Shown piece after piece: positions 644 through 36,267 of a stretch of DNA of 36,267 nt (position 1 is the stretch's first letter; every line of letters begins with the position of its first letter). The DNA lies in UHGV virus genome UHGV-0179687; one strand, 5' to 3'. Made by a program: the position numbers and the translations under genes. The stretch is from a virus. Under the pieces are notes generated by a model, which worked only from the letters and a program-made list of their open reading frames with translations, did no database searches and was not told where the DNA came from.

Positions 644-1890
644 TTATTCTCCTTCCACGATCCGCAGCGGTTCTTCTTCGCCGAGCAAAGTCTGCCGTCT
701 GGCGGCATCAACATAGTTTCCCCACCACTGCATGAGCGGTCGCCTTTGTTCCAGGTAATCGCTGCGGTTGTAGGCTGCTTCGATCTCGTCTTCTTTCTGG
801 TGTGCCAGCGCAGATTCCAGTACTTCACGGGGGAAATGACCTGCCCCCGCCGTTCTGGCGATGCTGCGCATGCTGTGGGCGACCAGTTTACCACCGAACC
901 CCATACGGATAAGCGCGGCGTTCGCGGTCTGCTGGTGCATATGCTCCAGGGGGTTGCGGATGCTGGGGAAAACCCACGGGCGATGGCGGCTGACGGGTTC
1001 CATAACCTGAGAAACGCGCAGCGCTTGTTTGCTAAGCGGCACCGTGTGTGAGCGGTTCATCTTCATAAAGGTATCGGGTATGCGCCATTCCGCTTTTTCA
1101 TATCGATATCGCACCAGCGAGCGCTGACGGCTTCGCCGGGACGTACCCAGGTCAGTAGCTCCCATTCAATCAGACAGCGGGTTTCCTTGCGGATAGAGGC
1201 GTTCTGTAGTGCCAGCATTAGCCTGCCCAGTTCACTGGGGTGAAGGGCGGGCATGTTCTGCTTTTTCGGTTTCTTGAAGCGGGCGACTAGGTTGTCAGCC
1301 GGATTGAACTCGATGAGCTCTTCAGAGATGGCGAAGCGGAAGATTTCATTGAGCCGTGAGATAACCCGGCGCAGCGTTTCGAGGATGCCCTGTTCTTCCA
1401 GCGGTGTGAGGTGTTCCTTGAGCATTTTCGGGCGGATCTCGGTGACGGGCGTATTGCCCAGAGAAGGGAAGACGTGCATCTCCAGCGAACGCCAGACATC
1501 TTTGGCGTGATCTTCGCTAAGGTCGCTGGTCCGTTTCTTCTCTTTGAGCCACTGTTCCGCAACTTTTTCCAGCGTACATTCATTCTGGAGTCGTTGCTCC
1601 TCTGCAACCTGCTCCAGATGGGCCTGCGGGTCGATACCCTGCACGAGTAAACGCCGGTATTGCAACCTGAAATCTCGCGCCATGGCGAGGGTGACAACCG
1701 GGTAGGGGCCAATGCTGATTTTGGTCCGTTTTTTCAGCGCCGGGGGAGTGTATTCGAAGTACCAGATCTTTCTGCCGGATGGCTTAATCAACAACGCCAG
1801 CCCGTCGCCATCGCGCAGCATATACTCAGTCTTCTGCGGTTTGGCGGCAGCGATCTCGGTATTGGTTAGTGATTTCAATACCTTAGGCAT
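644..1890 (-). pseudogene. P4/CP4-57-type tyrosine integrase, disrupted by a 1-nt frameshift
   Basis: Two adjacent minus-strand ORFs (1063..1890 and 644..1165) in different frames. The first carries the N-terminal domain (LTNTEIAAAKPQK...DGDGLALLIKPSGRKIWYFEY). The second carries the catalytic domain (HSMRSIA and AAYNRSDYLEQRRPLMQWW, the His-x-x-Arg and catalytic Tyr region). The frames meet at a T5 run at 1094..1098 (A5 on the coding strand). Confidence 0.8.
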
Positions 1891-2216: not shown

Positions 2217-3437
2217 TTATAGTGTGGGGTTATCTATCTTTTTATATTCAAATAGCATATCAATACTTCTTTCGAGTTTGTAAAAATCAGTTAAGGGGTA
2301 TAGTTTTACAATGTCCTCTTCGAAGTTTTTAATTCCAGACAGTTTTTCTTGACTTTGAAGATATCTCTTTGACATCATCAATTCTATTGAATTTTCTGTT
2401 ATTGATGAATGATCTAATGTTTTTAAGACCTGCCACGAAATAGGTGGCGTAAAGTCGAATAATGTGGAGAGTTTAGGGCAAAAATTTTGTTTTACCGTTT
2501 GTTCATATGTAACTTTGGGTGGAAATACAACATTTATTGAGCGGTTACTTAATCGTGAATTAGGCATTTTTGTAGAGAAGTAAGCTACACCGACAATTTT
2601 CGAGTAAGTTTTTCTACTAATCCATTGCATCAACAAATTAGGGATAATGTACTCTTGTATGAATGTTGCAGAACGATGATTTTTTAAATAATTACATGCA
2701 ATAATTAAAGGCCAGAAAATGAGATAAGAGGCCTTTACTCTATTTGTTTCGGCTAGTTTATTTTCGTCAGCGTAATCTGGTGAGGGATGTAACAAAAGCT
2801 GTGATGCAAAGTTTAAGACTTTATATTCAGTTTCACTGGTAGTAAATGATGAAATAAAAAGCTTGTCAAAATCTGGTTTTTCCATCTCCTGCCAACAAAC
2901 ATAAACCGAAGTGCCAAGATATAAACATGGTAAGCCAGCGACTGAATATCTTTGTGCACTAACAAAATGTCTATTGGAGAATGGAATATGGAAAATTTCA
3001 TCTCTTGACGTTAGAGGATTTTCACTTTTTCTAACTCGAAATAATGGTTTTTTATGATTGCAAATGCTACTGAGTGGAGTAGTGATGCGATGTATGTGTT
3101 GGATTGTTGAGTTATCAGAGAATGTTTTATCAAAGTGGTCATATGCTGACTTGATATCACCTGATAAAAAACTTTCAAGTGATAATGTTATTCCATTTTG
3201 AATGTTCTTAACTTTGCTGATTAATTCATCAAAATTCGGCATCCCATCTTTATTGTTGCTTTTGTATTTAATTATTGTTTTTAGATACTTATCGCAACGT
3301 TCAGTGAAGTCACTTATTATATCTCTATGTACTATAAGTGGAGGGTTTAATTTTGGTTCGGAAATGACTTGTTTTAATAATGAGTTTAAATGGTTCTCAA
3401 ATAACTTTTCTTTATTGACTTTGTTTTTAATATCCAT
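2217..3437 (-). CDS. hypothetical AT-rich cargo protein, 406 aa, with a possible RES-like motif
   Basis: Long minus-strand ORF starting 10 nt after the int stop. Hand-counted G+C about 27-30 % against about 55 % in the structural genes. Segment PFSNRHFVSAQRYSVAGLPCLYLGTSVYVCWQEM resembles the Arg / LY-L / Glu pattern of RES domains; this is weak and from memory. Confidence 0.6.
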   Translation of the reverse strand: MDIKNKVNKEKLFENHLNSLLKQVISEPKLNPPLIVHRDIISDFTERCDKYLKTIIKYKSNNKDGMPNFDELISKVKNIQNGITLSLESFLSGDIKSAYDHFDKTFSDNSTIQHIHRITTPLSSICNHKKPLFRVRKSENPLTSRDEIFHIPFSNRHFVSAQRYSVAGLPCLYLGTSVYVCWQEMEKPDFDKLFISSFTTSETEYKVLNFASQLLLHPSPDYADENKLAETNRVKASYLIFWPLIIACNYLKNHRSATFIQEYIIPNLLMQWISRKTYSKIVGVAYFSTKMPNSRLSNRSINVVFPPKVTYEQTVKQNFCPKLSTLFDFTPPISWQVLKTLDHSSITENSIELMMSKRYLQSQEKLSGIKNFEEDIVKLYPLTDFYKLERSIDMLFEYKKIDNPTL

Positions 3438-3447
3438 TTTGATAAGC

Positions 3448-4467
3448 TCAAATAGTTAACATATGTAAAGGGTTTTTGGTAACGGCATCTTCAAGATGGT
3501 CTGGGGAAAAATGAGAATAAACCATTGTCATTTTTATATCTGTATGACCGAGAATCTCTTTAAGAACAAGTATGTTTCCTCCGTTCATCATAAAATGGCT
3601 GGCAAATGTATGACGTAATACATGGGTGCATTGACCCTCTGGAAGCTCAATACCGGCCCGCTTTACTGCACGCTCAAAGGCTTTTCTGCAGGGCGAGAAT
3701 AACTTCCCTCGGTTTTTAGGAAGTTCGTTGTACAGCTCCTGAGATATCGGCACGGTACGGTTTTTCTTGCCCTTCGTCTTGGTATAAGTGATGCGGTATT
3801 TGGATAACTGATGGCCCTGCAGTTTTTCGGCTTCACTCCACCGTGCGCCGGTAGCTAAGCATATTTTGGTAATCATTAGTAGGCTCGGGCTTTGAGATTC
3901 AGCACATGCAGCCAACAGGCGTTTGATTTCCTCCGTGGAAAGAAAGGCTAGTTCACCTTCAGCAATTTTAAATGTTGGAAGCCCGGCAAGAGGGTTGGGG
4001 GCTGACCAGTGGCCCAGCTTTTTCAGTGTACCAAAAACCGATGATAGGTTGCGTTGTTCAAGGTTTACCGTGCGGGGCTTAACGGGCGACATCAGCGTGC
4101 CATCTTCATTTCGCACTTCACCTTTTAGCCGTGCTTCGCGGTATTTCGTAAAGTCACCGGCAGTCAGCTCTGAAGCGATGGGATCGCCCAGACCATTACA
4201 GATAATTCCAAGTTTCGCCATGAGTCGCTTGGGGTCTGCGAGTGTCTGACCATACAGGGAATACCACAGCTCAATTAATTCTGATAGGCGTCGCCGATCA
4301 TCCTTTTCACCCAACCACGGTTTTTTATTCACTTCTTCCATTGTGAAGCTTTCAAACGCAATGGCTTCGCCTTTCGTGGCAAATTGCTTACGCACGCGCT
4401 TGCCATTGCGTCCATTGGGATAGCACTCACACAACCATTTTCCGTTCGGCTGTTTTCTGATGGTCAT
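3448..4467 (-). CDS. int: P2-type tyrosine integrase
   Basis: 339 aa. N-terminal RNGKRVRKQF, then TGARWSEA, HVLRHTFASHFMMNGG and LGHTDIKMTMVYSHF (Arg, His-x-x-Arg, catalytic Tyr), typical of P2 Int. Confidence 0.9.
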   Translation of the reverse strand: MTIRKQPNGKWLCECYPNGRNGKRVRKQFATKGEAIAFESFTMEEVNKKPWLGEKDDRRRLSELIELWYSLYGQTLADPKRLMAKLGIICNGLGDPIASELTAGDFTKYREARLKGEVRNEDGTLMSPVKPRTVNLEQRNLSSVFGTLKKLGHWSAPNPLAGLPTFKIAEGELAFLSTEEIKRLLAACAESQSPSLLMITKICLATGARWSEAEKLQGHQLSKYRITYTKTKGKKNRTVPISQELYNELPKNRGKLFSPCRKAFERAVKRAGIELPEGQCTHVLRHTFASHFMMNGGNILVLKEILGHTDIKMTMVYSHFSPDHLEDAVTKNPLHMLTI

Positions 4468-4468
4468 A

Positions 4469-5101
4469 TCAAAGGCTCTTAATGATTTTCAGTGCGCGGC
4501 CTACTACCTCAATGTCATCCAGGCCGCACTCAAACGATGAATCATCCTGATGCACTACTAATTTGTTTCCCGGGAGTCGAGTCAATTTAACAATGCTTTT
4601 TATCCCGTCGATATCGACTAACCACATACCATTTACTAGTGGTGTTTGGTTGCGATCTATTAAATAAGAATCACCAGAAGTAGTCACCAGCAGTAGGTTG
4701 CTTGAGTCTGAGGGGAGTATGCTGCTATCAATGATTGCTTTTCCAGCATCGATCAATAAACCACCGTTGAGAGTCGCCTTGTCAATTTCAGGAGATACTA
4801 GTTCAGAAAGAGGTATAACCTTGCTGGAGTTCACGGAGTTGATATTTTTTTGGGGTTCAATGTTTGAACCTGGCTCCCCCTGTCCGGTGGTTAGCCACAG
4901 TAAAGAAACTCCTGTTTCCAAGGCGCACTGAATCACCCACTCTGCAGGAAAACTATCTCTTAAGTATCTGTTTGCCATGGTACTTTTTGATGCGCCCAAG
5001 TGATCGCAAAGTTGCTGTCTGGACTTGAAATCATAGGCTGCCATTAGTCTATGGATAGCCTCTCTTCCCCCTGTATTCTCTCCAGCCTTTACCTGTATCA
5101 T
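4469..5101 (-). CDS. cI: 186-type CI immunity repressor
   Basis: 210 aa, directly upstream of int on the same strand and divergent from the Apl-like/cII genes. N-terminal HTH-like region. Size and position match phage 186 cI. Confidence 0.7.
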   Translation of the reverse strand: MIQVKAGENTGGREAIHRLMAAYDFKSRQQLCDHLGASKSTMANRYLRDSFPAEWVIQCALETGVSLLWLTTGQGEPGSNIEPQKNINSVNSSKVIPLSELVSPEIDKATLNGGLLIDAGKAIIDSSILPSDSSNLLLVTTSGDSYLIDRNQTPLVNGMWLVDIDGIKSIVKLTRLPGNKLVVHQDDSSFECGLDDIEVVGRALKIIKSL

Positions 5102-7046: not shown

Positions 7047-7900
7047 GCACCATCCTGAAATGGGCGGGTAATAAAACCGCCATTATGTCCGAACTGAAAA
7101 AACACCTTCCTGCTGGCCCGCGACTGGTTGAACCTTTCGCGGGTTCTTGTGCTGTGATGATGGAGACGGATTACCCCAGCTATTTGGTTGCGGATATTAA
7201 TCCTGATTTAATCAACCTCTATAAAAAGGTTGCCGCTGATTGTGAATCGTTTATATTTCGCGCCAGAGTTTTATTTGAGATCGCAAACAGGGAGGTGGCT
7301 TATTACAACATAAGGCAGGAGTTTAATTACTCCACTGAAATTACTGATTTCATGAAAGCGGTATATTTCCTGTATCTCAATCGTCACGGTTACCGTGGTT
7401 TATGTCGCTATAACAAGAGCGGGCATTTCAACATTCCCTACGGTAATTATAAAAATCCGTATTTCCCTGAAAAAGAACTTCGCACATTTGCAGAAAAAGC
7501 CCAGCGAGCAACGTTTGTCTGCGCCAGCTTTGATGAAACGCTGGCGATGTTGAAGGCGGGGGATGTGGTGTATTGCGATCCGCCGTATGACGGTACGTTT
7601 TCCGGCTATCACACTGATGGTTTCACTGAAGATGACCAGTATCACCTGGCATCCGTTCTTGAACATCGGTCATCAGAAGGACATCCGGTCATTGTTTCTA
7701 ACAGTGACACATCCCTGATCCGTTCGCTGTATCGCAATTTTACTCACCACTACATCAAGGCAAAACGCAGCATCGGCGTAGCAGCTGGTGAGAGTAAATC
7801 TGCAACAGAAATCATTGCTGTTTCCGGGCCGCGCTGCTGGGTGGGATTTGATCCTTCGCGTGGCGTGGATAGTTCTGCCGTGTACGGAGTGCGTGCATGA
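7043..7900 (+). CDS. dam: DNA adenine methyltransferase (Dam-like)
   Basis: 285 aa with the DPPY catalytic motif (VYCDPPYDG) and the N-terminal PFAGSCAV AdoMet-binding-like segment. Confidence 0.85.
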
Positions 7901-10311
7901 GCCATGCTGATATGAACAATTGCAGCGGCTTTAACGAGGCCGCCGCAGCATTCTCATGGAACAGCCCGAAAAAGGCTATTAACCCTTATCTGGACCCGGC
8001 GGAAGTTGCGCCGGTTTCTGCGCTTTCAAACCTGATCACTCTGTACGCTGCCGATAACGAGCAGGAACAACTGCGCCGCGAGGCACTGAGTGATCAGGTC
8101 TGGGAGCGTTATTTCTTTAATGCATCCCGTGATCCTGTCCAACGCGAAATGGAGCAGGATAAGCTCATTAGCCGGGCAAAGCTGGCGCATGAGCAGCAGC
8201 GTTTTAATCCGGACATGATCATACTGGCGGACGTTAACGCCCAGCCTTCCCATATCAGCAAGCCGCTGATGCAACGTATTGAATACTTCAGCAGCCTGGG
8301 CAGGCCAAAGGCTTATTCCCGCTATTTGCGTGAGACGATTAAGCCATGTCTGGAACGACTGGAGCATGTACGCGACAGTCAGCTATCCACTTCTTTTCGC
8401 TTTATGGCAAGCCATGAAGGGCTGGACGGCCTGCTGATCTTGCCTGAATTGAGTCAGGATCAGGTGAAACGCCTGTCTACTCTTGTCGCTGCGCATATGA
8501 GTATGTGTCTTGATGCCGCTTGTGGTGATTTGTACGCCACCGATGATGTTAAGCCAGAAGAAATCCGCAAGACATGGGAAAAGGTGGCAGCAGAAACCCT
8601 GCGACTGGATGTCATACCGCCTGCGTTTGAGCAACTCCGCCGGAAAAGAAACCGCCGTAAACCCGTGCCCTATGAACTCATTCCGGGTTCGCTGGCGCGT
8701 ATGTTGTGCGCCGATTGGTGGTACCGTAAATTATGGAAGATGCGTTGCGAATGGCGGGAAGAGCAGTTGCGTGCTGTTTGTCTGGTCAGCAAAAAAGCAT
8801 CTCCCTATGTCAGCTATGAAGCCGTGATGCATAAACGTGAGCAGCGCCGTAAGTCGCTGGAGTTTTTCCGTTCTCATGAACTGGTGAACGAAGACGGCGA
8901 CACGCTGGACATGGAGGATGTGGTAAACGCCAGCAGCACCAACCCTGCACATCGCCGCAATGAGATGATGGCCTGTGTTAAAGGTCTGGAGCTTATCGCG
9001 GAAATGCGCGGTGACTGCGCCGTTTTTTACACCATCACCTGTCCGTCACGTTTCCATTCCACGCTAAATAACGGCAGGCCCAACCCGACCTGGACAAACG
9101 CGACGGTAAGACAAAGCAGTAATTATCTGGTCGGCATGTTTGCTGCATTTCGTAAGGCGATGCACAAAGCCGGGTTGCGCTGGTATGGCGTGCGGGTGGC
9201 TGAGCCGCATCATGACGGCACAGTTCACTGGCACCTGTTGTGTTTCATGCGCAAAAAAGACCGCCGCGCCATTACTGCATTGTTGCGTAAGTTTGCTATC
9301 CGTGAAGACCGCGAGGAGCTGGGTAATAACACGGGGCCACGCTTTAAGTCTGAGCTGATAAACCCGTGCAAAGGAACGCCGACTAGCTACATCGCGAAAT
9401 ACATCAGTAAGAACATTGACGGGCGTGGTCTGGCTGGCGAGATCAGCAAGGAAACGGGTAAATCTCTGCGTGATAACGCTGAATACGTTAATGCCTGGGC
9501 GTCTCTGCATCGTGTTCAGCAATTCCGCTTCTTTGGCATTCCGGGACGTCAGGCTTACCGTGAACTGCGATTGCTGGCTGGTCAGGTGGCAAGGCAACAG
9601 GGTGACAAAAAAGCAGGTGCGCCGGTACTGGATAACCCGCGCCTTGATGCCATTCTGGCTGCAGCTGATGCTGGTTGTTTTGCCACCTACATCATGAAGC
9701 AGGGCGGCGTACTGGTTCCCCGTAAATATCACCTCATCAGAACCGCTTATGAAATCAACGAAGAGCCGACCGCCTATGGCGATCACGGCATTCGTATTTA
9801 TGGCATCTGGTCACCCATTGCAGAGGGCAAAATCTGCACTCATGCAGTGAAGTGGAAAATGGTTCGTAAGGCCGTTGACGTTCAGGAGGCGGCAGCCGAC
9901 CAGGGCGCTTGCGCCCCTTGGACTCGTGGCAATAACTGTCCCCTTGCTGAAAATTTGAACCAACAAGGGAAAGACAAATCAGCTGATGGGGATACCAGAA
10001 CGGAGATCACCCGCATGGATGACAAGGAGTTGCACGATTACCTGCACAGTATGAGCAAAAAAGAGCGCCGGGAACTGGCAGCAAGGTTACGCCTGGTGAA
10101 ACCGAAATGGCGTAAAGACTACAAACAGCGAATTACAGAGCATCAGCGTCAGCAGCTCGTCTATGAACTGAAGTCCAGAGGATTTGATGGCAGCGAGAAA
10201 GAGGTCGATCTGCTCCTTCGCGGTGGCAGTATTCCGTCAGGAGCAGGCCTGCGTATCTTCTATCGGAACCAGCGTTTGCAGGAAGATGATAAGTGGCGGA
10301 ACCTGTATTAA
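7897..10311 (+). CDS. A: replication initiation endonuclease (P2 gpA-like)
   Basis: 804 aa. His-hydrophobic-His motif (TVHWHLLCF) and a downstream YIAKYISK tyrosine segment typical of rolling-circle initiators. Sits where P2 gene A does. Confidence 0.9.
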
Positions 10312-10403: not shown

Positions 10404-10423
10404 TACTGTAAATATAAACAGTG
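10404..10423 (+). promoter_or_regulatory. LexA (SOS) box
   Basis: tACTGTaaatataaACAGtg matches CTGT-N8-ACAG with an AT-rich spacer, about 45 nt upstream of the ORF at 10465. Confidence 0.7.
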
Positions 10424-10663: not shown

Positions 10664-10897
10664 ATGCGCATTGAAATAATGATCGATAAAGAGCAGAAGA
10701 TTAGCCAGTCTACCCTGGACGCCCTTGAATCCGAGCTTTACCGCAATCTGCGCCCCCTGTATCCCAAGACGGCGATCCGCATTCGCAAAGGCAGTGCCAA
10801 CGGTATCGAGTTGACCGGCTTAAAACTTGATGAGGATAAGCAGCGGGTAATGGAAATTATGCAGCAGGTCTGGGAAGACGACAGCTGGCTGCATTAG
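10664..10897 (+). CDS. dinI: DinI-family protein
   Basis: 77 aa, MRIEIMIDK...DALESEL...KQRVMEIMQQVWEDDSWLH, matching DinI conserved positions (MRIE start, DAL-x-EL, KQR-x-x-EI-x-Q-x-WE...W). Confidence 0.8.
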   Translation: MRIEIMIDKEQKISQSTLDALESELYRNLRPLYPKTAIRIRKGSANGIELTGLKLDEDKQRVMEIMQQVWEDDSWLH

Positions 10898-11183
10898 CGA
10901 ACGTTGCGGACGATAAAACTGGCTTTTACCGTCCGCAAGGTTGAACAACGAGCCGTGCGAGGCGTTAGAAATTGCCTTTGTTAGTGCCTGCTTCTCATAA
11001 GAGGCACTATATATGCTAAATGCAGTGGTTTAAGGCAGAAACATCTTGCGCGATTAGGGGCAATGAACTTAAGTTAAGTAACGCAACCAACAGTTAAAAC
11101 GGTTGTCTTAGTTATAAGGAACTTGCTGTTGTGGTTGCTGGTGACGAAGTGTACACTTCCGCGCCGTATAAGAAGGAGGGGTT

Positions 11184-11402
11184 ATGTCAAGTATCGCCGC
11201 ATTGAAGCTGGGTAATCCAGTTGAACGTTTGGCACGGGTTCTGAAAGAGAACCAGGACAAGCTCAATCTGAGTAAAGATGGTTTTGTGTCCGTAGATTTG
11301 TCCAACGAAGAAGCTATGAAAGCCATCCGAGATCAGATGGATAAGCTTGAAGGCATCAAAACGAGCACTGTTAAAGCAAAATATTATTACAGAACCCGAT
11401 AA
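11184..11402 (+). CDS. small soluble hypothetical protein (first gene of accessory pair)
   Basis: 72 aa, strong RBS aaggaggg. Stop overlaps the next start (TAATG). Confidence 0.6.
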   Translation: MSSIAALKLGNPVERLARVLKENQDKLNLSKDGFVSVDLSNEEAMKAIRDQMDKLEGIKTSTVKAKYYYRTR

Positions 11403-12244
11403 TGGCAACATTACTTTTAGCAGTGATTTTGGTTAGTGGTTTTATATATGTAAACCTATCACTTTCAACACGTTATAGATATAAGCGTTCCAATGGCTGG
11501 GACGCTTATTTTTTTGTGGCTGCATGGGGAATTGTCTTTTTCCTCGCTGGCGGCTTCCTTACCTTCGCTCTTAACATCAGCGGTGGGTTTCGCTGGTTTT
11601 CTAATGCGCTGAATCTGACTCCAGACAGCTTTAACGGGATGTTATCCACCACAACCGATAAACCGCAGCGCATCAATGAAATTAAGCAAATCGCGTGGGT
11701 TGTGATTTCAATAGTTCTCGCGGCGCTGTTCGGTTGGCTAAACAAACGCCGTACTTCAAAGGGGGATCGCCGTTGGGATGCACTGGCAAAGGCAGTGGGA
11801 AACAATGCTTTTGAATCGCTGCTCATGGAAGCATCAGCTCGCCAGTTTCCTATCATTGCTACACTTTCATCACGCAAAATCTATGTAGGGCTGGTGACTT
11901 GCCCTGCGTTGGAAAATGGATTGTCGGAACACCTTGAAATTCTCCCCTTGCTGAGCGGATATCGTGATAAAGACGACCTAACGATAAATATCACGACAAA
12001 CTATCATCAGCACTATCTTGATAGCGGTGTTATCAATGGGATGTCGCGCCTGAATATCCAGGATTTCCGTGTGCTTCTCCCTAAAGATGAAGTTGAAACC
12101 ATCTCGTTTTTTGATACTGAAACGTATAACAAATTTAAAGAAAACGAAGCGCGTGACCGGAAAGACTGCCGCAAGTTGGGTGGTAAAAAGCCATCCGCAC
12201 GCAGGAGAAAGACTGCTGGCGACGCAGAGCAGGGTAGTGCATGA
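11402..12244 (+). CDS. membrane protein with three N-terminal hydrophobic helices and a C-terminal soluble domain
   Basis: 280 aa. Hydrophobic segments LLLAVILVSGFIYVNLSL, YFFVAAWGIVFFLAGGFLTFAL and IAWVVISIVLAALFGWL, then about 170 soluble residues and a basic tail. Confidence 0.65.
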   Translation: MATLLLAVILVSGFIYVNLSLSTRYRYKRSNGWDAYFFVAAWGIVFFLAGGFLTFALNISGGFRWFSNALNLTPDSFNGMLSTTTDKPQRINEIKQIAWVVISIVLAALFGWLNKRRTSKGDRRWDALAKAVGNNAFESLLMEASARQFPIIATLSSRKIYVGLVTCPALENGLSEHLEILPLLSGYRDKDDLTINITTNYHQHYLDSGVINGMSRLNIQDFRVLLPKDEVETISFFDTETYNKFKENEARDRKDCRKLGGKKPSARRRKTAGDAEQGSA

Positions 12245-12289
12245 CTATGCTGCATGAATTTGCATGATCGTTTGAGGATCGTTTTAGCT

Positions 12290-12318
12290 CCGGCCCGCCA
12301 GTTCAGGCGGGCTTTTTC
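12290..12318 (+). terminator. rho-independent terminator after the membrane-protein gene
   Basis: GC stem cggcccgcc / ggcgggc with loop agttca, followed by TTTTT. Confidence 0.7.
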
Positions 12319-12459
12319 ATATCTCATGCAGGTGCATGAAAACCACTACACAAAGCGGGCAGGCGTGGCGGGGATACGAGCGCGCGCAACAGGTAAACCC
12401 CTAGACTTGTTAAAATATTTGTCATATAAATCAAACATCAAACCTAAGGGAGGCAGAGG

Positions 12460-13893
12460 ATGATCCAGCCAAAAGTTTTTATATCCTATAGTTGGTCAAG
12501 TAAAACTCATCAGCAACATATCAAAGATATGGCTGAACGATTGGCGGCAGATGGAGTTGAAACTGTCATAGATATTTATGACTTGAAAGAAGGGGATGAT
12601 AAAAATTATTACATGGAAAGAATGGTTCAAGATGAAACGGTTACGCATGTTTTAGTCATTTGTGATAAAAAATACTCAGAAAAAGCCGATTTAAGAAAAG
12701 ATGGTGTCGGTGTTGAGTCGATGATAATTTCCCAGGAAATATATTCATCCGTGTCGCAGTCCAAATTTATACCATTAATATTTGAGTACAAAGATAATGG
12801 AGAGCCGTATACTCCAATCTTTCTGAAGTCTAGAATCTATATTGATTTTTCAACGCCAGAAAAAGAAAATGATAATTGGGAGCGTTTAATCAGGTTGCTT
12901 TATGGAAAACCAGAATTTACTAAGCCACCATTAGGTAAGCCTCCGGTTTATTTAGAGCAAGACACGTCAAAACCGACGTATGAAATTCATGCAAAATTTC
13001 AAACTTTAAAATCAGCTGTCTTAAATCAAAAGCAGACATTAAAGGATTGCAGAAGGCAATTTTTAGAGGTGTGCCGAAATTATTGTATCTCACTACAAGT
13101 CGTAACAAACCCAACTACTGAAGATTTTGCAGCGGAAGTTTTGCAAATTCATAAAGAGCTTATTGCCGTTAGGGATGCCATTACAGACTGGGTTTTACTT
13201 GAGGGTGATACGCAGGGCGAAGACTTTTCCAAAGCACTATTACAGTTTATGGAAGTAATGTTAGCGATTAGAAATCGTCCGAAAAATGTAAATTCATATA
13301 ATGAAATATGGTTTTTGCCCCATCAGATTTTTGCGTATGAAACGTTTTTATATATTTTGGCGGCTTTAATAAAAATTGAAGCTTTCCAGCATGTACATAC
13401 ATTACTGCATACATCTTATTTGCTACCCGATCATATAACCAGTCCGGGAATGGAGTTTGCTAATTACAGTGAGTTATATTTAAGCTCTGATTACCTTCAA
13501 AGTAAATTGTCCCCTGAAAACTATCGACTGTATTCCCCTGTTGCTGAGTTAGTAAAGCAAAGTGCAACTAGAGATGATGTGTCTTTCGATGATTTGAAAC
13601 AAGCTGATCTTGTTGCTCTTATGATATCCTTCATTAATCCCGGTATTTTTTGGTACCCGCAAATGTTGTTGTATTCCGGGCACTATGAGAAATATCCTCT
13701 ATTTACAAGAGCAATACAGCATAGAGGATTCAAGAGTATTGCAGTTATTACCGGAATCGATGACAGTAAACTTTTGGCTCAAAAGCTGACAGAGGGTGAG
13801 GCCCAGCGAAATACTAATAACTGGTATCATTTCGGTTTTAATAGAGACTTTCTCAATAAAATGAATGTTAGTCGTCTAGATAGTATTGAATGA
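12460..13893 (+). CDS. TIR-like domain protein with an unrecognised C-terminal domain
   Basis: 477 aa. N-terminus KVFISYSWSS...VLVICDKKYSEK...GVGVESMI fits a TIR/TIR-like fold signature (FISYS strand, later acidic residue). RBS aagggagg. Hand-counted G+C about 27-35 %. Confidence 0.7.
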   Translation: MIQPKVFISYSWSSKTHQQHIKDMAERLAADGVETVIDIYDLKEGDDKNYYMERMVQDETVTHVLVICDKKYSEKADLRKDGVGVESMIISQEIYSSVSQSKFIPLIFEYKDNGEPYTPIFLKSRIYIDFSTPEKENDNWERLIRLLYGKPEFTKPPLGKPPVYLEQDTSKPTYEIHAKFQTLKSAVLNQKQTLKDCRRQFLEVCRNYCISLQVVTNPTTEDFAAEVLQIHKELIAVRDAITDWVLLEGDTQGEDFSKALLQFMEVMLAIRNRPKNVNSYNEIWFLPHQIFAYETFLYILAALIKIEAFQHVHTLLHTSYLLPDHITSPGMEFANYSELYLSSDYLQSKLSPENYRLYSPVAELVKQSATRDDVSFDDLKQADLVALMISFINPGIFWYPQMLLYSGHYEKYPLFTRAIQHRGFKSIAVITGIDDSKLLAQKLTEGEAQRNTNNWYHFGFNRDFLNKMNVSRLDSIE

Positions 13894-13898
13894 AAATT

Positions 13899-13924
13899 AG
13901 AGGGCGCTTTGCAAAGCGCTCTCT
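13899..13924. terminator. hairpin between the convergent TIR-like gene and Q (possible bidirectional terminator)
   Basis: agagggcgctttgcaaagcgctctct, a near-perfect inverted repeat between the stop at 13893 and the Q stop at 13928. Confidence 0.55.
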
Positions 13925-13927
13925 GTA

Positions 13928-14968
13928 TTAGTTTTCAATATCTAAGGTGTAGGGCTCAAAGCGGATCACTTCTTCGCCCAGCCAGTCGTTAAGCTCCTGC
14001 AGTCGCTTCTGCAGCGGCATCAGCTCGTTGCGGACAAAGACGCGGCTGGCCTTTTCCACATCACCAAAGCCGCCGGTATTGTTGGGAATGATGCCCATCA
14101 TCTGCGGCGGCACGCGGTGAGCAGCCATCATGTCATCACGGCTCACGTTCTTGATGTTCAGAAATTCATCCTTTGCCGCAACTTCCGACAACGGGATTAT
14201 CTGGATGCCGTCCTTTTTACCGTTGGGCGAATACATAAACAGGTTGCGGAAGTTGCCCGGCCCTTTGGCGCTTTTCATTGCCTGGCGGATATTGTTCACG
14301 TCCTCCTGATTCTGTGCTGCGTCGGTCATGTACATGATGAAACCCGCGTGGCTGCCGTTGATGTAATACTTCCGGCGAAACAGCGTTGCTGACTCGTTGA
14401 GCAGGGTTGACGGGATGGCGGAGAGATAGCCGGGCAGCCCGTAAATCTCCTGATTAATATCCGGTTCCAGCAGATGAAAGATGTTGCCCTGCGTAAATTC
14501 ATAGGGCTGCGTGGTCATGCCATACTGCACAAACCAGTAGGTGTCGAGATCCACGCCGCGCCGTGTGTACTTCGCCAGTGCTGGCTCCAGCGAGAGAACG
14601 CTGCCGAGCCGGTTGGTGCGCTTTTCCAGATAGGCGTTACCGAACACCAGATAATCCTGGACGAAACGGGCAAAAGCCTGCTGGCTGAGCAGGCGGTGCG
14701 GGATATAGGTACTGCTGAGAATGTCACGCTTAACGGCAATCGGTGAGCTGTGATGCACGGCGGCGCGATAGGTCCGCGCCAGTCCGTCAAAGCTCACCGG
14801 CGGTTCATACCAGCGATCCATCTGCACGCATTCCACGTAGTCCAGCAATTCGCGTCGGTCTAACACCGGCACCGGGTCGCCAAAGCTGAACGCCTCTGCC
14901 GCAGCACCGCCTGAATTTGCGTTGTGATCTACTGCTGCGCGGTTATTCTTGTTTTTACGTTTGCTCAT
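13928..14968 (-). CDS. Q: portal protein (P2 gpQ-like)
   Basis: 346 aa, upstream partner of the terminase as in P2. Conserved FSFGDPVPVLDRRELLDYVECV segment near the N-terminus. Confidence 0.9.
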   Translation of the reverse strand: MSKRKNKNNRAAVDHNANSGGAAAEAFSFGDPVPVLDRRELLDYVECVQMDRWYEPPVSFDGLARTYRAAVHHSSPIAVKRDILSSTYIPHRLLSQQAFARFVQDYLVFGNAYLEKRTNRLGSVLSLEPALAKYTRRGVDLDTYWFVQYGMTTQPYEFTQGNIFHLLEPDINQEIYGLPGYLSAIPSTLLNESATLFRRKYYINGSHAGFIMYMTDAAQNQEDVNNIRQAMKSAKGPGNFRNLFMYSPNGKKDGIQIIPLSEVAAKDEFLNIKNVSRDDMMAAHRVPPQMMGIIPNNTGGFGDVEKASRVFVRNELMPLQKRLQELNDWLGEEVIRFEPYTLDIEN

Positions 14969-33202: not shown

Positions 33203-33684
33203 TGATGGTGCTGGGATTATACGTGTTTATGCTGCGCACCGTGCCGTATCAGGAGCTGCAGTATCAGCGCAGCTGGCGACATGCGGCTAACAGCCGGGTT
33301 AACCGACGCCCGTCAACGCAGTTTCTGGGACCGGATAACGACATGCTGACGCTTTCTGGCGTTCTTATGCCGGAAATAACAGGCGGCAGGCTGTCGTTGC
33401 TGGCACTGGAGCAGATGGCAGAACAGGGGAAAGCATGGCCCCTGATTGAAGGCAGCGGCACGATTTACGGCATGTATGTGATTGAGGGACTGAATCAGAC
33501 TAAAACGGAGTTTTTCCGCGACGGTATGCCGCGCAGGATTGAGTTCACCCTGTCGCTAAAACGCGTGGATGAATCCCTGTCCGATATGTTCGGTGATCTC
33601 AGTGCGCAACTGAATAATCTGCAGGGAACGGAAACATCTGCCTTAAGCGATATCAGTAAAACGGTGGGAGGGCTGCTGTCGTGA
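33199..33684 (+). CDS. U: tail protein U
   Basis: 161 aa, overlapping the T stop. Confidence 0.85.
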   Translation: MMMVLGLYVFMLRTVPYQELQYQRSWRHAANSRVNRRPSTQFLGPDNDMLTLSGVLMPEITGGRLSLLALEQMAEQGKAWPLIEGSGTIYGMYVIEGLNQTKTEFFRDGMPRRIEFTLSLKRVDESLSDMFGDLSAQLNNLQGTETSALSDISKTVGGLLS

Positions 33685-34781
33685 ATTTCAGCTCTGAACT
33701 GCTTAACAAAGGCAACAAAACTCCGGCATTCAGCATCAGTATTGAAGGCAGGGATATCACCACTGTGCTGGACAACCGCCTGATGGGGCTGACGCTGACG
33801 GATAACCGGGGATTTGAAGCGGACCAGCTTGATCTGGAGCTGGACGACGCCGATGGAAAAATCGTGCTGCCGCGCCGTGGTGCGGTCATTACGCTGGCGC
33901 TGGGCTGGAAGGGGCAGCCGCTTTTCCCGAAAGGGGCATTCACGGTGGACGAGATTGAACACACTGGCGCACCGGACCGCCTGACTATCCGGGCGCGAAG
34001 TGCTGATTTTCGGGAAACCCTGAATACCCGCCGTGAAAAATCGTGGCATAACACCACCATCGGGGAAGTGGTGAAGGAAATAGCCGCGCGGCACAAGCTG
34101 AAGATGGCACTGGGTAAAGAGCTGTCGGATAAGCCCGTGGAGCATATAGACCAGACTAATGAGAGTGACGGCAGTTTTCTGATGCGACTGGCGCGACAGT
34201 ACGGTGCCATCGCGTCGGTGAAAAATGGCAATCTGTTATTCATCCGGCAGGGGCAGGGCAAAAGCGCCACTGGTAAACCACTGCCAGTGATCACTATCAC
34301 ACGCAAGGACGGCGACAGTCACCGCTTTACCCTGGCAGATCGCGGAGCCTACACGGGCGTAATTGCCAGCTGGTTGCATACCCGTGAACCTGCGAAGAAA
34401 GAAAGCACCACGGTGAAGCGTAAGCGCAGAACTAAGAAGCAGAAGAAAGAGCCGGAAGCGAAGCAGGGCGATTACCTGGTGGGTACGGATGAAAACGTGC
34501 TGGTACTTAATCGCACTTATGCCAACCGGAGCAACGCCGAACGAGCGGCGAAAATGCAGTGGGAACGCCTGCAACGCGGCGTTGCGTCATTCTCGCTACA
34601 ACTGGCGGAAGGGCGGGCAGATCTCTACACGGAAATGCCAGTGAAAGTCAGTGGCTTTAAACAGCCGATAGATGATGCGGAATGGACTATTACCACCCTG
34701 ACGCATACTGTCAGCCCGGATAACGGTTTTACGACCAGTCTGGAGCTTGAAGTGAAGATTGATGATTTCGAAATGGAATGA
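33681..34781 (+). CDS. D: tail protein D
   Basis: 366 aa, overlapping the U stop. Last late structural gene. Confidence 0.85.
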   Translation: MNFSSELLNKGNKTPAFSISIEGRDITTVLDNRLMGLTLTDNRGFEADQLDLELDDADGKIVLPRRGAVITLALGWKGQPLFPKGAFTVDEIEHTGAPDRLTIRARSADFRETLNTRREKSWHNTTIGEVVKEIAARHKLKMALGKELSDKPVEHIDQTNESDGSFLMRLARQYGAIASVKNGNLLFIRQGQGKSATGKPLPVITITRKDGDSHRFTLADRGAYTGVIASWLHTREPAKKESTTVKRKRRTKKQKKEPEAKQGDYLVGTDENVLVLNRTYANRSNAERAAKMQWERLQRGVASFSLQLAEGRADLYTEMPVKVSGFKQPIDDAEWTITTLTHTVSPDNGFTTSLELEVKIDDFEME

Positions 34782-35351: not shown

Positions 35352-35525
35352 ATGGATACAAACGAACTTGGCTTAGTTAAGGCGCGTGTTGAACTGATCA
35401 CCGCTATGCTCAAATGCGCAACCGCGTTTGTTGGCTTAGTTGGTGCGGTTTACGCCGTTCTTAACATGGCCTTCAACTACAACAATTTAACTCATGACAA
35501 TAGAAGTTCAAAGGTGGGAAGATAA
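35352..35525 (+). CDS. small hydrophobic protein upstream of the reverse transcriptase
   Basis: 57 aa from the ATG at 35352, with ggagg 8 nt upstream. One long hydrophobic segment (ATAFVGLVGAVYAVLNMAF). Its 3' end overlaps the RT start by 32 nt. Coding status is uncertain. Confidence 0.4.
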   Translation: MDTNELGLVKARVELITAMLKCATAFVGLVGAVYAVLNMAFNYNNLTHDNRSSKVGR

Positions 35526-36267
35526 ATTTGAGATTAAGCCCGGGGTTTGGGTTTATGTCCCAAGCGTTGAGGCACGTAAAGTCGGAGGGAAGATACTTCA
35601 GGCTGTCAGAAACAAGTGGATTCCGCCACTCTATTTTTACCATCTAAGAACTGGTGGGCATCTTAAAGCTGCCAGATTACACTTAAAAAGTGATTTTTTT
35701 GCCGTTGTTGATATTAAACAATTTTTTCAGTCAACGAGCCGTAGTCGTATCACCCGTGATCTAAAGAGCTACTTCACCTATTCTCAAGCGCGGGAAATCT
35801 CAACATTTTCAACTGTAAGAAACTTGTCCCATAGTCCACATAAGCATGTCCTCCCTTTTGGTTTTGTTCAATCTCCAATACTTGCAACCCTCTGCTTAGA
35901 TAAAAGTTATTTTGGTAGCTTACTACGCCGATTGAACAAACATCATGATCTCAAGCTAAGTGTGTTTATGGATGATGTGATCATCTCGTCAAACGATTTG
36001 GCCCAATTACAAGCGGCTTACGACGAAGCACTAGTGGCAATGCGTAAATCTGGTTATCAAGCCAACATGAGTAAAACTCAGGCACCATCGTCAAAGATTA
36101 GCGTGTTTAATTTAACTTTGAGTAAGGGAGTTATGAAAGTCACATCTCAGAAAATGAGTGACTTCCTGATTGATTTCTATTCAAGCAATTATGAGCCGCA
36201 CAGAATAGGGGTCAAAAACTACGTCGAAGCTGTTAATCCAGGGCAAGCGAAACTCTTTAAGTTGTAA
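35494..36267 (+). CDS. compact reverse transcriptase
   Basis: 257 aa with RT motifs in order: FFAVVDIKQFFQST (motif A Asp), LPFGFVQSPILATLCL (motif B'), LSVFMDDVIISS (motif C, x-M-D-D), ...MSKTQ (motif D). Hand-counted G+C about 40 %. Confidence 0.75.
   Translation: MTIEVQRWEDKFEIKPGVWVYVPSVEARKVGGKILQAVRNKWIPPLYFYHLRTGGHLKAARLHLKSDFFAVVDIKQFFQSTSRSRITRDLKSYFTYSQAREISTFSTVRNLSHSPHKHVLPFGFVQSPILATLCLDKSYFGSLLRRLNKHHDLKLSVFMDDVIISSNDLAQLQAAYDEALVAMRKSGYQANMSKTQAPSSKISVFNLTLSKGVMKVTSQKMSDFLIDFYSSNYEPHRIGVKNYVEAVNPGQAKLFKL

Follow-up and report, generated by a model that had tools for sequence, protein, structure and literature searches.

Do the genes that a P2-like prophage carries between its replication gene and its portal gene make up one defence system, or are they separate cargoes that lie side by side? 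This question is raised by the virus genome UHGV-0179687, a stretch of 36,267 nucleotides (nt) that was analysed as a whole and is called the window hereafter, with positions counted from its first letter. A preliminary description had singled out positions 11184-13924 as a candidate undescribed anti-phage module, in which an AT-rich gene encoding a TIR-like protein of 477 amino acids (aa) is preceded by a pair of genes encoding a 72-aa soluble protein and a 280-aa membrane protein, and had left undecided whether these act as two units or as one sensor-effector system. The best overall explanation, to which we assign a probability of about 0.8, is that of two independent cassettes flanking cos, the site of the phage cohesive ends, with a bSEFIR gene on one side and a two-gene membrane moron on the other.

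A cos site within the gpA-gpQ cargo island

The three open reading frames (ORFs) were all found where they had been placed, i.e., at 11184..11402 (72 aa), 11402..12244 (280 aa) and 12460..13893 (477 aa), on the plus strand. The island is bordered on the left by gpA (7897..10311, plus strand), whose homologue is annotated as 'nicking at origin of replication' or 'replication endonuclease' in a near-identical phage and in prophages, and on the right by the portal gene Q (13928..14968, minus strand), annotated as portal in related records. These borders, together with a content that varies among relatives, agree with the earlier assignment to the variable cargo position of P2-like phages. This gpA-gpQ (old/tin) hotspot has been catalogued in detail and is rich in defence systems (Rousset et al. 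2022; Vassallo et al. 2022), while P2 hotspots hold non-defence cargo as well. Among the 18,150 gpA-gpQ loci analysed by Rousset et al., Table S5A contains "TIR_2/SEFIR + DinI" loci, and it lists the Escherichia coli version of the pair (WP_000094764 and WP_021556032) as "hypothetical + hypothetical" with varying third genes, e.g., SieB or PIN_12.

The host element of both cassettes is a P2-like (Peduoviridae) prophage. Positions 10900-13930 showed 99.5% identity to Klebsiella phage ST15-OXA48phi14.1 (Peduoviridae, Gegavirus), whose record contains three hypothetical proteins and a "TIR domain-containing"/"SEFIR domain" protein at this locus. The kind of SEFIR gene, the hotspot and the locus itself, as a GenBank entry, were known already. 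With regard to base composition, the G+C content of the 477-aa gene was 36.0% (34-38% per 300-nt window, 31% at third codon positions), that of the pair 42-46%, and that of gpA, Q and P 53-57%. The contrast that had led to the gene being called AT-rich is thus real, while the 27-35% given for it was slightly low.

When 10900-13930 was compared by megablast with 5,426 complete E. coli genomes, the whole region was recovered in none of them, and 1,243 genomes shared just a piece of about 160 bp, corresponding to positions 12234-12397. This conserved piece aligns with the end junctions of P2 and 186. When the records of P2 and 186, the first 19 bases of which are annotated as cohesive ends, were joined at their ends and taken as reference, positions 12362-12380 of the plus strand (GGCGTGGCGGGGATACGAG) aligned column for column with GGCGAGGCGGGGAAAGCAC of P2 and GGCGTGGCGGGGAAAGCAT of 186, and the flank upstream of the cohesive end was conserved over about 130 bp. 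This 19-nt segment is the predicted cosN, at which cleavage would take place.

The position of cos bears on two elements that had been described between the pair and the TIR-like gene. One is a terminator: a scan of the region gave 8 sites, compared with 3.7 +/- 1.9 expected, among them a G+C-rich hairpin at 12292-12313 (plus strand) followed by TTTTT. Both hairpin and T run exist, but they do not form a boundary specific to the cassettes, as they are part of the conserved cos flank of more than 1,000 E. coli prophages, including prophages without either cargo. The other is a promoter-like element on the plus strand, TAGACT (12402-12407), a 17-nt spacer and TATAAA (12425-12430), which could be read directly in the sequence as reported, although a consensus promoter scan skipped it because its second hexamer ends in A. 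From cos through this element into the start of the SEFIR gene, the sequence is identical in phage 500465-1, which carries the SEFIR gene and no pair, and the putative promoter at 12402..12430 therefore belongs to the SEFIR cassette.

With cos separating the pair from the SEFIR gene, the A-Q island falls into two slots for cargo, which in virion DNA come to lie at opposite ends: a DinI-cos slot, equivalent to the old/tin position in P2, on the right and a cos-portal slot on the left. In most of the 49 related viral loci with a recognisable cos, this site starts exactly 118 bp past the membrane-protein gene. The interval between cos and the portal gene measured 118-247 bp in 20 of these loci, i.e., it was empty as in P2 and 186, and 610-2,925 bp in the 29 occupied ones. 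Depending on the phage, the cos-portal slot contains SEFIR, a P-loop NTPase or a DUF4145 protein (related loci L003, L018 and L028-L062), and this cargo begins within about 10-20 nt of the cohesive end. Both units of the window lie between gpA and gpQ beside cos, with a content that is variable among related prophages and does not belong to the core.

A 69-aa ORF at 12254..12463 (plus strand) was also considered as a fourth gene of the island and rejected: it spans cos, and only its first 46 residues, which cover conserved cos DNA, match the PHROG family phrog_28685. In NC_049454 it appears as gp15, a hypothetical protein, and it is probably a spurious ORF and a recurrent mis-annotation in records of P2-like phages.

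Assignment of the 477-aa protein to bSEFIR

bSEFIR is a validated single-protein defence system from Bacillus sp. NIO-1130 (Millman et al. 2022; Osterman et al. 2024), and the family was defined by an N-terminal match to SEFIR that is stronger than that to TIR (Millman et al. 2022). The motifs KVFISYSWSS, VLVICDKKYSEK and GVGVESMI, on which the TIR-like signature had been based, are present in the 477-aa protein, and a TIR-superfamily domain at its N-terminus was confirmed by two Pfam profiles above their cut-offs, namely SEFIR (aa 4-143, 55 bits with a cut-off of 23, E=1.5e-14) and TIR_2 (50.9 bits with a cut-off of 28, E=2.7e-13). SEFIR thus outscored TIR, as in the family definition, with hmmscan used here and HHsearch by Millman et al. 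Moreover, the PADLOC model of bSEFIR (PDLC03957) matched aa 3-470 over profile positions 38-379 of 412, with 343 bits and E=9.9e-103, which means that the C-terminal 330 or so residues, which the preliminary description could not place, belong to the bSEFIR family too. By these profile matches, the "TIR-like" protein is a member of the single-gene anti-phage system bSEFIR. Accordingly, the architecture does match a named system, contrary to what had been stated, and of the proposed undescribed module it is the upstream pair that remains as the undescribed part.

Other comparisons were in line with this assignment. The N-terminal domain matched the crystal structures of the Bacillus cereus SEFIR domain (PDB 5Y8E, 5Y8F) with E=2.5e-29 by sequence and 2.8e-39 with a profile, the SEFIR part being the only one for which solved relatives could be detected by sequence. 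The protein falls into phrog_11745 (1.8e-223), and the RefSeq name of its E. coli copies is "SEFIR domain-containing protein". The two-domain architecture of about 477 aa is kept in more than 1,220 homologous protein clusters, and full-length homologs of about that size, with 47-50% identity, were found in Pseudomonas, Vibrio, Bacteroidota, Chloroflexi and Thermotogota. D38 and G82-V83-G84-x-E86 were invariant in 32 diverse homologs; D38 is the putative counterpart of the aspartate mutated as D40A in the Bacillus NIO-1130 protein. The AlphaFold model contains an alpha/beta domain at aa 1-147, predicted with a moderate confidence score (pLDDT) only, a disordered linker (aa 152-171) and a confidently predicted all-helical domain (aa 173-477). 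Within the gene, the SEFIR domain (aa 4-147) corresponds to nt 12469-12900 and the C-terminal domain to nt 12976-13890.

The SEFIR gene stands alone between cos and portal in 7 E. coli genomes and in phage 500465-1, where its conserved neighbours are core genes only. Its E. coli copies are mutually at least 99% identical, and the ORF is intact in the window. In the record of phage 500465-1 (1260-2492 of the locus examined, L002), gpA is interrupted by genes of the IS21/IS100 insertion-sequence family, and SEFIR, portal and terminase are annotated in fragments. As the other E. coli SEFIR copies are intact, this suggests frameshifts or sequencing errors in the record rather than gene decay.

An anti-phage role is the best reading of the 477-aa protein. 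The cassette (12381-13925) comprises the promoter-like element and one bSEFIR gene, which by homology to the Bacillus system would act alone: the C-terminal helical domain presumably senses an infecting phage, whereupon SEFIR domains would associate and hydrolyse nicotinamide adenine dinucleotide (NAD+) to ADP-ribose and nicotinamide, and the loss of NAD+ would starve the infecting phage in an abortive infection. This course of events is established for the Bacillus prototype; for the present protein, both the NADase activity and the trigger are proposed by analogy. It could be argued instead that the protein is a scaffold or adaptor working through SEFIR-SEFIR interaction, as IL-17R and Act1 do, or an inactive cargo. 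Eukaryotic SEFIR domains are adaptors, the SEFIR profile also matches Act1 weakly, and the first report on bacterial bSEFIR stressed SEFIR-SEFIR interaction on the basis of the D40A mutant. A later paper, however, describes NAD+ depletion through the SEFIR domain and its overcoming by a phage NAD+ reconstitution pathway, and the intact ORF, the invariant GVGxE, the conservation across phyla and the near-identity of the E. coli copies also speak against an adaptor or an inert gene, to which we give little credence.

Separate distribution of the pair and the SEFIR gene

Among the 5,426 E. coli genomes, the pair was present in 52 and the SEFIR gene in 7, and no genome contained both. Neither is consequently a core gene; the opposite, conserved core genes, is what the preliminary description had named as a possible refutation. 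Of 80 pair-carrying viral loci from IMG/VR, 4 contained SEFIR; in each of these, the membrane protein was at least 99% identical to that of the window, so that they represent the window phage's own lineage. The joint occurrences found are the window, ST15-OXA48phi14.1 and these 4 loci. SEFIR alone (DinI - cos - SEFIR - portal) occurs in phage 500465-1 and the 7 E. coli genomes, at least 99% identical, and the pair alone (DinI - pair - cos - portal) in E. coli CP8-3 and about 50 E. coli genomes, at about 81% nucleotide identity. In E. coli MB06173 the pair is combined with a P-loop NTPase in the cos-portal slot, and in the viral locus L018 with a DUF4145 protein. The pair and the SEFIR gene are therefore two independent cargo cassettes, one on each side of cos.

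These results also settle which of the two earlier proposals is to be retained. One is that all three genes form a single sensor-effector system like Thoeris, CBASS or AC1, in which the SEFIR/TIR protein would produce a signal or sense the infection and the membrane protein would be the effector. In its favour, the genes are adjacent and on the same strand in the window and in ST15-OXA48phi14.1, and another P2-like phage holds in this hotspot a validated TIR system with two transmembrane (TM) proteins, AC1 '2TM + 1TM + TIR' (Rst_2TM_1TM_TIR; Rousset 2022). Nevertheless, cos and its conserved flank separate the pair from SEFIR; 7 E. coli genomes and 500465-1 carry SEFIR but not the pair, while 52 E. 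coli genomes and 76 of the 80 viral loci carry the pair but not SEFIR; and bSEFIR works as a single gene. Homology to AC1 was rejected, as the best BLASTP E between the AC1 TIR protein and the 477-aa protein was 9.4, and hhalign gave a probability of 0.2% between the AC1 TM protein and the 280-aa family, a comparison that covers two of the three AC1 proteins. Thoeris- or CBASS-type TIR signalling was likewise dismissed: the neighbouring ORFs gave no match to ThsA/ThsB, a cyclase, SIR2 or Macro in Pfam and PADLOC, in agreement with the earlier remark on the last three, and the SEFIR gene and the TM protein next to it are not inherited together. The separate distribution and the cos site in between largely refute the one-system hypothesis, which we regard as extremely improbable, and the alternative of two units is the one that stands.

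The upstream pair, a self-contained two-gene moron

The stop codon of the 72-aa gene overlaps the start codon of the 280-aa gene by one base (TAATG), which is compatible with translational coupling. The first gene encodes a basic soluble protein with an isoelectric point of 9.5 (phrog_9843, 4.9e-36), and the second an inner-membrane protein (phrog_3630), both PHROG families being of unknown function. In the 280-aa protein, hydropathy indicated three hydrophobic helices (aa 1-23, 34-63 and 91-115), as had been noted before and as the AlphaFold model supports, and the charge bias places the loop of aa 20-34 and the part after aa 114 in the cytoplasm. The model further predicts a cytoplasmic Sm/Hfq-like beta-barrel at about aa 136-236. 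SRKxYVG and LLPLLSGYRDKD are invariant motifs of the family, and Y161, G163, P182, S185, G186, R188, Y201 and F237 are invariant even at about 25% identity.

A search of 1.84 billion representatives with the family profile of the 280-aa protein returned 3,216 relatives at E<=1e-3 and 2,463 at E<=1e-10; among the best 150 of the 3,216, nearly all had 230-300 aa and matched over their full length. The profile searches that had been recommended for the three proteins, which identified the 477-aa protein as SEFIR, TIR_2 and bSEFIR, yielded no match for the 72-aa or the 280-aa protein in Pfam, NCBIfam or PADLOC. When the pair and 42 diverse family members were compared with Pfam, NCBIfam, PADLOC and PDB profiles, isolated sub-threshold matches only were obtained, such as DUF2207_C (E=0.0099) and DUF6338 (E=0.0014, in one of the 42); the '2TM effector' model of PADLOC matched one distant member (E=7e-4), which is not significant across 42 proteins. 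A BFVD fold search with the 280-aa protein gave weak matches to Sm-like and uncharacterised proteins. In the literature, nothing was found under the protein accessions, the PHROG identifiers or the bSEFIR name, and a query for Sm-like transmembrane anti-phage proteins turned up only a paper on a WYL regulator.

The small partner proved to be a constant companion. A homolog of the 72-aa protein, with the core P-x-E-RL...LKEN...DG...S-DL, was present in every context examined; it lay directly upstream and on the same strand in 76 of the 80 viral loci, and 2 of the remaining 4 are cut by a contig end. A conjugative element and a chromosomal island retain it even though their membrane-protein homologs have only about 25% identity, and its own identity is 18-40% in these two and in a Vibrio lambdoid prophage. 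Outside the window's lineage, the pair kept its small partner in each context, and no TIR or SEFIR gene stood alongside.

P2-like prophages account for 54 of the 80 viral loci. The pair was also found in a P4-like satellite, next to Psu and Ogr/Delta, whose locus was examined over 12.9 kb and contained no tail genes, in the Vibrio lambdoid prophage, in the conjugative element and at non-phage chromosomal sites, and some distant homologs have ordinary chromosomal contexts. In siphophage tail modules it occupies three positions: one separates K from I/J, one separates the tape-measure gene from gpL, and one is immediately ahead of the tape-measure gene. The last of these is seen in an Aeromonas prophage (L015/L016, 5785-6771), where the pair lies between the gene of a 249-aa tail-region protein and the tape-measure gene, in the usual place of the tail-assembly chaperone. 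In a Pectobacterium chromosome (L010/L011, 5372-6819), the genes for DinI, the small protein and the membrane protein lie between those for an MscK-like channel and an MFS transporter, with no P2 genes nearby; this arrangement is either a right end left behind when a P2-like prophage decayed, or a copy that has been domesticated. The best-supported description of the pair is that of a self-contained, horizontally mobile two-gene moron, consisting of an inner-membrane protein and a small cytoplasmic partner.

As for its expression, the promoter scan gave no convincing sigma-70 promoter for the pair in 10900-11183. The pair lies downstream of an operon with a LexA box and a DinI gene, without a clear terminator or promoter of its own. 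It may be transcribed from a weak promoter of its own or by read-through from the LexA-controlled DinI operon, and read-through linked to the SOS response is conceivable.

Possible functions of the pair

We propose that the first cassette (about 11037-12244), which occupies the DinI-cos or old/tin slot, provides a translationally coupled module of the 72-aa and 280-aa proteins. All that is said here on its function derives from sequence, predicted fold and genomic context. Most likely, the module protects the lysogen from other phages at the membrane, a function that we favour tentatively, at somewhat less than even odds. Two routes could lead there. The 280-aa protein may block the entry of the genome of superinfecting phages at the inner membrane; alternatively, it may oligomerise into a ring-like structure, bind a ligand, probably an oligonucleotide, and permeabilise the membrane. 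The 72-aa protein would be its regulator or inhibitor. The more specific proposal, that the pair is a new, widespread two-component anti-phage system, acting by superinfection exclusion or abortive infection, whose effector is a membrane-anchored Sm/Hfq-like ring sensing a nucleic-acid ligand on the inner side of the membrane, is plausible but has only about one chance in three.

The contexts of the pair can also be read in favour of a role in the phage lytic cycle, as a holin/antiholin-like lysis regulator, a helper of tail assembly or injection, or a packaging accessory near cos. In siphophage prophages the pair lies within late tail operons and on their strand, the Aeromonas copy takes the usual place of the chaperone, and in P2-like phages its distance from cos is fixed at 118 bp. 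Against such a role, the pair occurs in only 52 of the at least 1,243 E. coli genomes with this type of cos, so it is not core; three different positions in tail modules fit insertion rather than a conserved structural role; the satellite, the conjugative element and the non-phage chromosomal sites hold it as well; and its G+C content is below that of the flanks. The identity of a tail-assembly chaperone was ruled out by the three tail-module positions, the three TM helices and the presence in the satellite and the conjugative element. A contribution to the lytic cycle is accordingly a long shot.

Toxin-antitoxin or addiction modules are a stronger competitor, as are other functions in lysogenic conversion that alter host membrane physiology (stress tolerance, transport). 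Translational coupling of a small protein to a larger one in the membrane is a layout typical of toxin-antitoxin modules too; there is no PADLOC match to the pair, some distant homologs sit in ordinary chromosomal contexts, the Pectobacterium remnant of DinI and pair persists without a phage, and P2 hotspots are not reserved for defence. On the other hand, the pair recurs at documented hotspots of defence and exclusion in three unrelated kinds of mobile element, 6 of 8 tested unknown cargoes of the P4 hotspot proved defensive, and toxin-antitoxin and defence functions are not mutually exclusive. We consider a non-defence function rather unlikely, if by a smaller measure than a lytic one, and retain protection at the membrane as the preferred function.

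Either way, the pair is a strictly co-inherited, very widespread family at positions where prophages keep exclusion and defence genes. The family has about 3,200 representatives at 50% clustering and travels as a moron with P2-like phages, P4-like satellites, siphophages (lambdoid and other) and conjugative elements. For annotation, a cos site inside the hotspot of this phage group means that cargo on either side is to be treated as separate cassettes. Furthermore, an enterobacterial bSEFIR gives access to the genetics and phage panels of E. coli and Klebsiella, which are better than those for the Bacillus prototype.

Flanking features and other loci of the prophage

Upstream of the pair, CTGT-N8-ACAG has a single match in the whole window, a perfect LexA box (TACTGTAAATATAAACAGTG, 10404..10423, plus strand), which is predicted to bind LexA. 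It precedes a conserved 62-aa phage ORF (10466..10653, plus strand; phrog_698, 1.5e-37), which related records annotate as a 62-aa hypothetical protein and which appears to be core-like rather than cargo, and a gene of the Tum/DinI family (10665..10897, plus strand; Pfam DinI, 2.7e-24), annotated as DinI in related records. The counterpart of this LexA box in phage 186 is the p95 promoter, annotated as LexA-repressed, whose p95-tum operon is under SOS control. At the other end of the island, a hairpin with a 12-bp palindrome (13898..13925), detected by the terminator scan on both strands, lies between the convergent SEFIR and portal genes and is likely a two-way terminator; P2 and 186 have an annotated terminator (tQ/tW) just past the portal gene, in the same position.

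Three further loci of the window were recorded. A 405-aa ORF at 2217-3437 (minus strand), with no Pfam or PADLOC match, adjoins the P2-type integrase (3448..4467) and the CI repressor (4469..5101), and it occupies the integrase-att position, a minor defence hotspot of P2-like phages (2026 preprint). A truncated second integrase at 1063-1890 (minus strand) has Arm-DNA-bind_3 and Phage_int_M but only the first 54 or so positions of the catalytic domain, and looks like the remnant of another integrative element at the prophage border. Finally, the tail gene gpD (33681..34781) is directly followed by a reverse-transcriptase ORF (35494-36267, plus strand; Pfam RVT_1, 2e-21; best PADLOC match retron RT_VI, 6.6e-18), which runs off the end of the window. 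This ORF probably represents a retron at the Z/fun position, the second cargo hotspot of P2, in which case the prophage would hold at least two recognisable defence systems, besides the pair.

Comparison with known systems

Two further identities were considered and rejected. Homology to Orf97 of phage 186, which sits in the same slot and blocks 186 infection, found no support (BLASTP E=0.2), nor did a mechanosensitive channel of the MscS type (Pfam MS_channel), with its three TM helices and cytoplasmic domains.

CBASS Cap15 is a membrane effector with a small ligand-binding barrel. The 280-aa protein shares this concept, compared by description only, in that its TM helices are joined to a compact cytoplasmic beta-barrel that could gate membrane disruption, whereas the pair, unlike Cap15 and CBASS, comes without a cyclase or another signal-producing partner. 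Its C-terminal domain is predicted, at 8-18% identity, to be similar in fold to the ring-forming RNA-binding Sm/LSm/Hfq proteins and the related ligand-binding WYL domains of defence regulators; unlike in those proteins, the barrel is fused to a three-TM anchor.

The pair can further be compared with prophage morons for exclusion at the inner membrane, such as HK97 gp15 and P22 SieA, which like it provide an inner-membrane protein on a mobile cassette. HK97 gp15 is a superinfection-exclusion protein encoded by a moron just before the tape-measure gene, which is the very position of the pair in two siphophage prophages. By description, to which the comparison is limited, HK97 gp15 belongs to the YebO family and is one small protein, whereas the pair consists of two genes and includes a cytoplasmic Sm-like domain. 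AC1, like the present locus, combines a TIR-superfamily protein with membrane proteins in this hotspot, but the numbers of TM helices and the sizes differ, and the membrane pair and SEFIR are separable here and split by cos.

The 477-aa protein resembles bSEFIR in its N-terminal domain, closer to SEFIR than to TIR, in the full-length profile match, in the promoter-like element of its own and in the location in a defence hotspot. It differs from Bacillus bSEFIR in coming from an enterobacterial P2-like prophage and in its cos-portal position, which is specific to P2-like phages. Lastly, Rousset et al. and Vassallo et al. describe one hotspot 'adjacent to cos', whereas, as far as a non-exhaustive check of the literature goes, it is in the present analysis that cos splits this hotspot into a DinI-cos and a cos-portal slot, each filled independently of the other.

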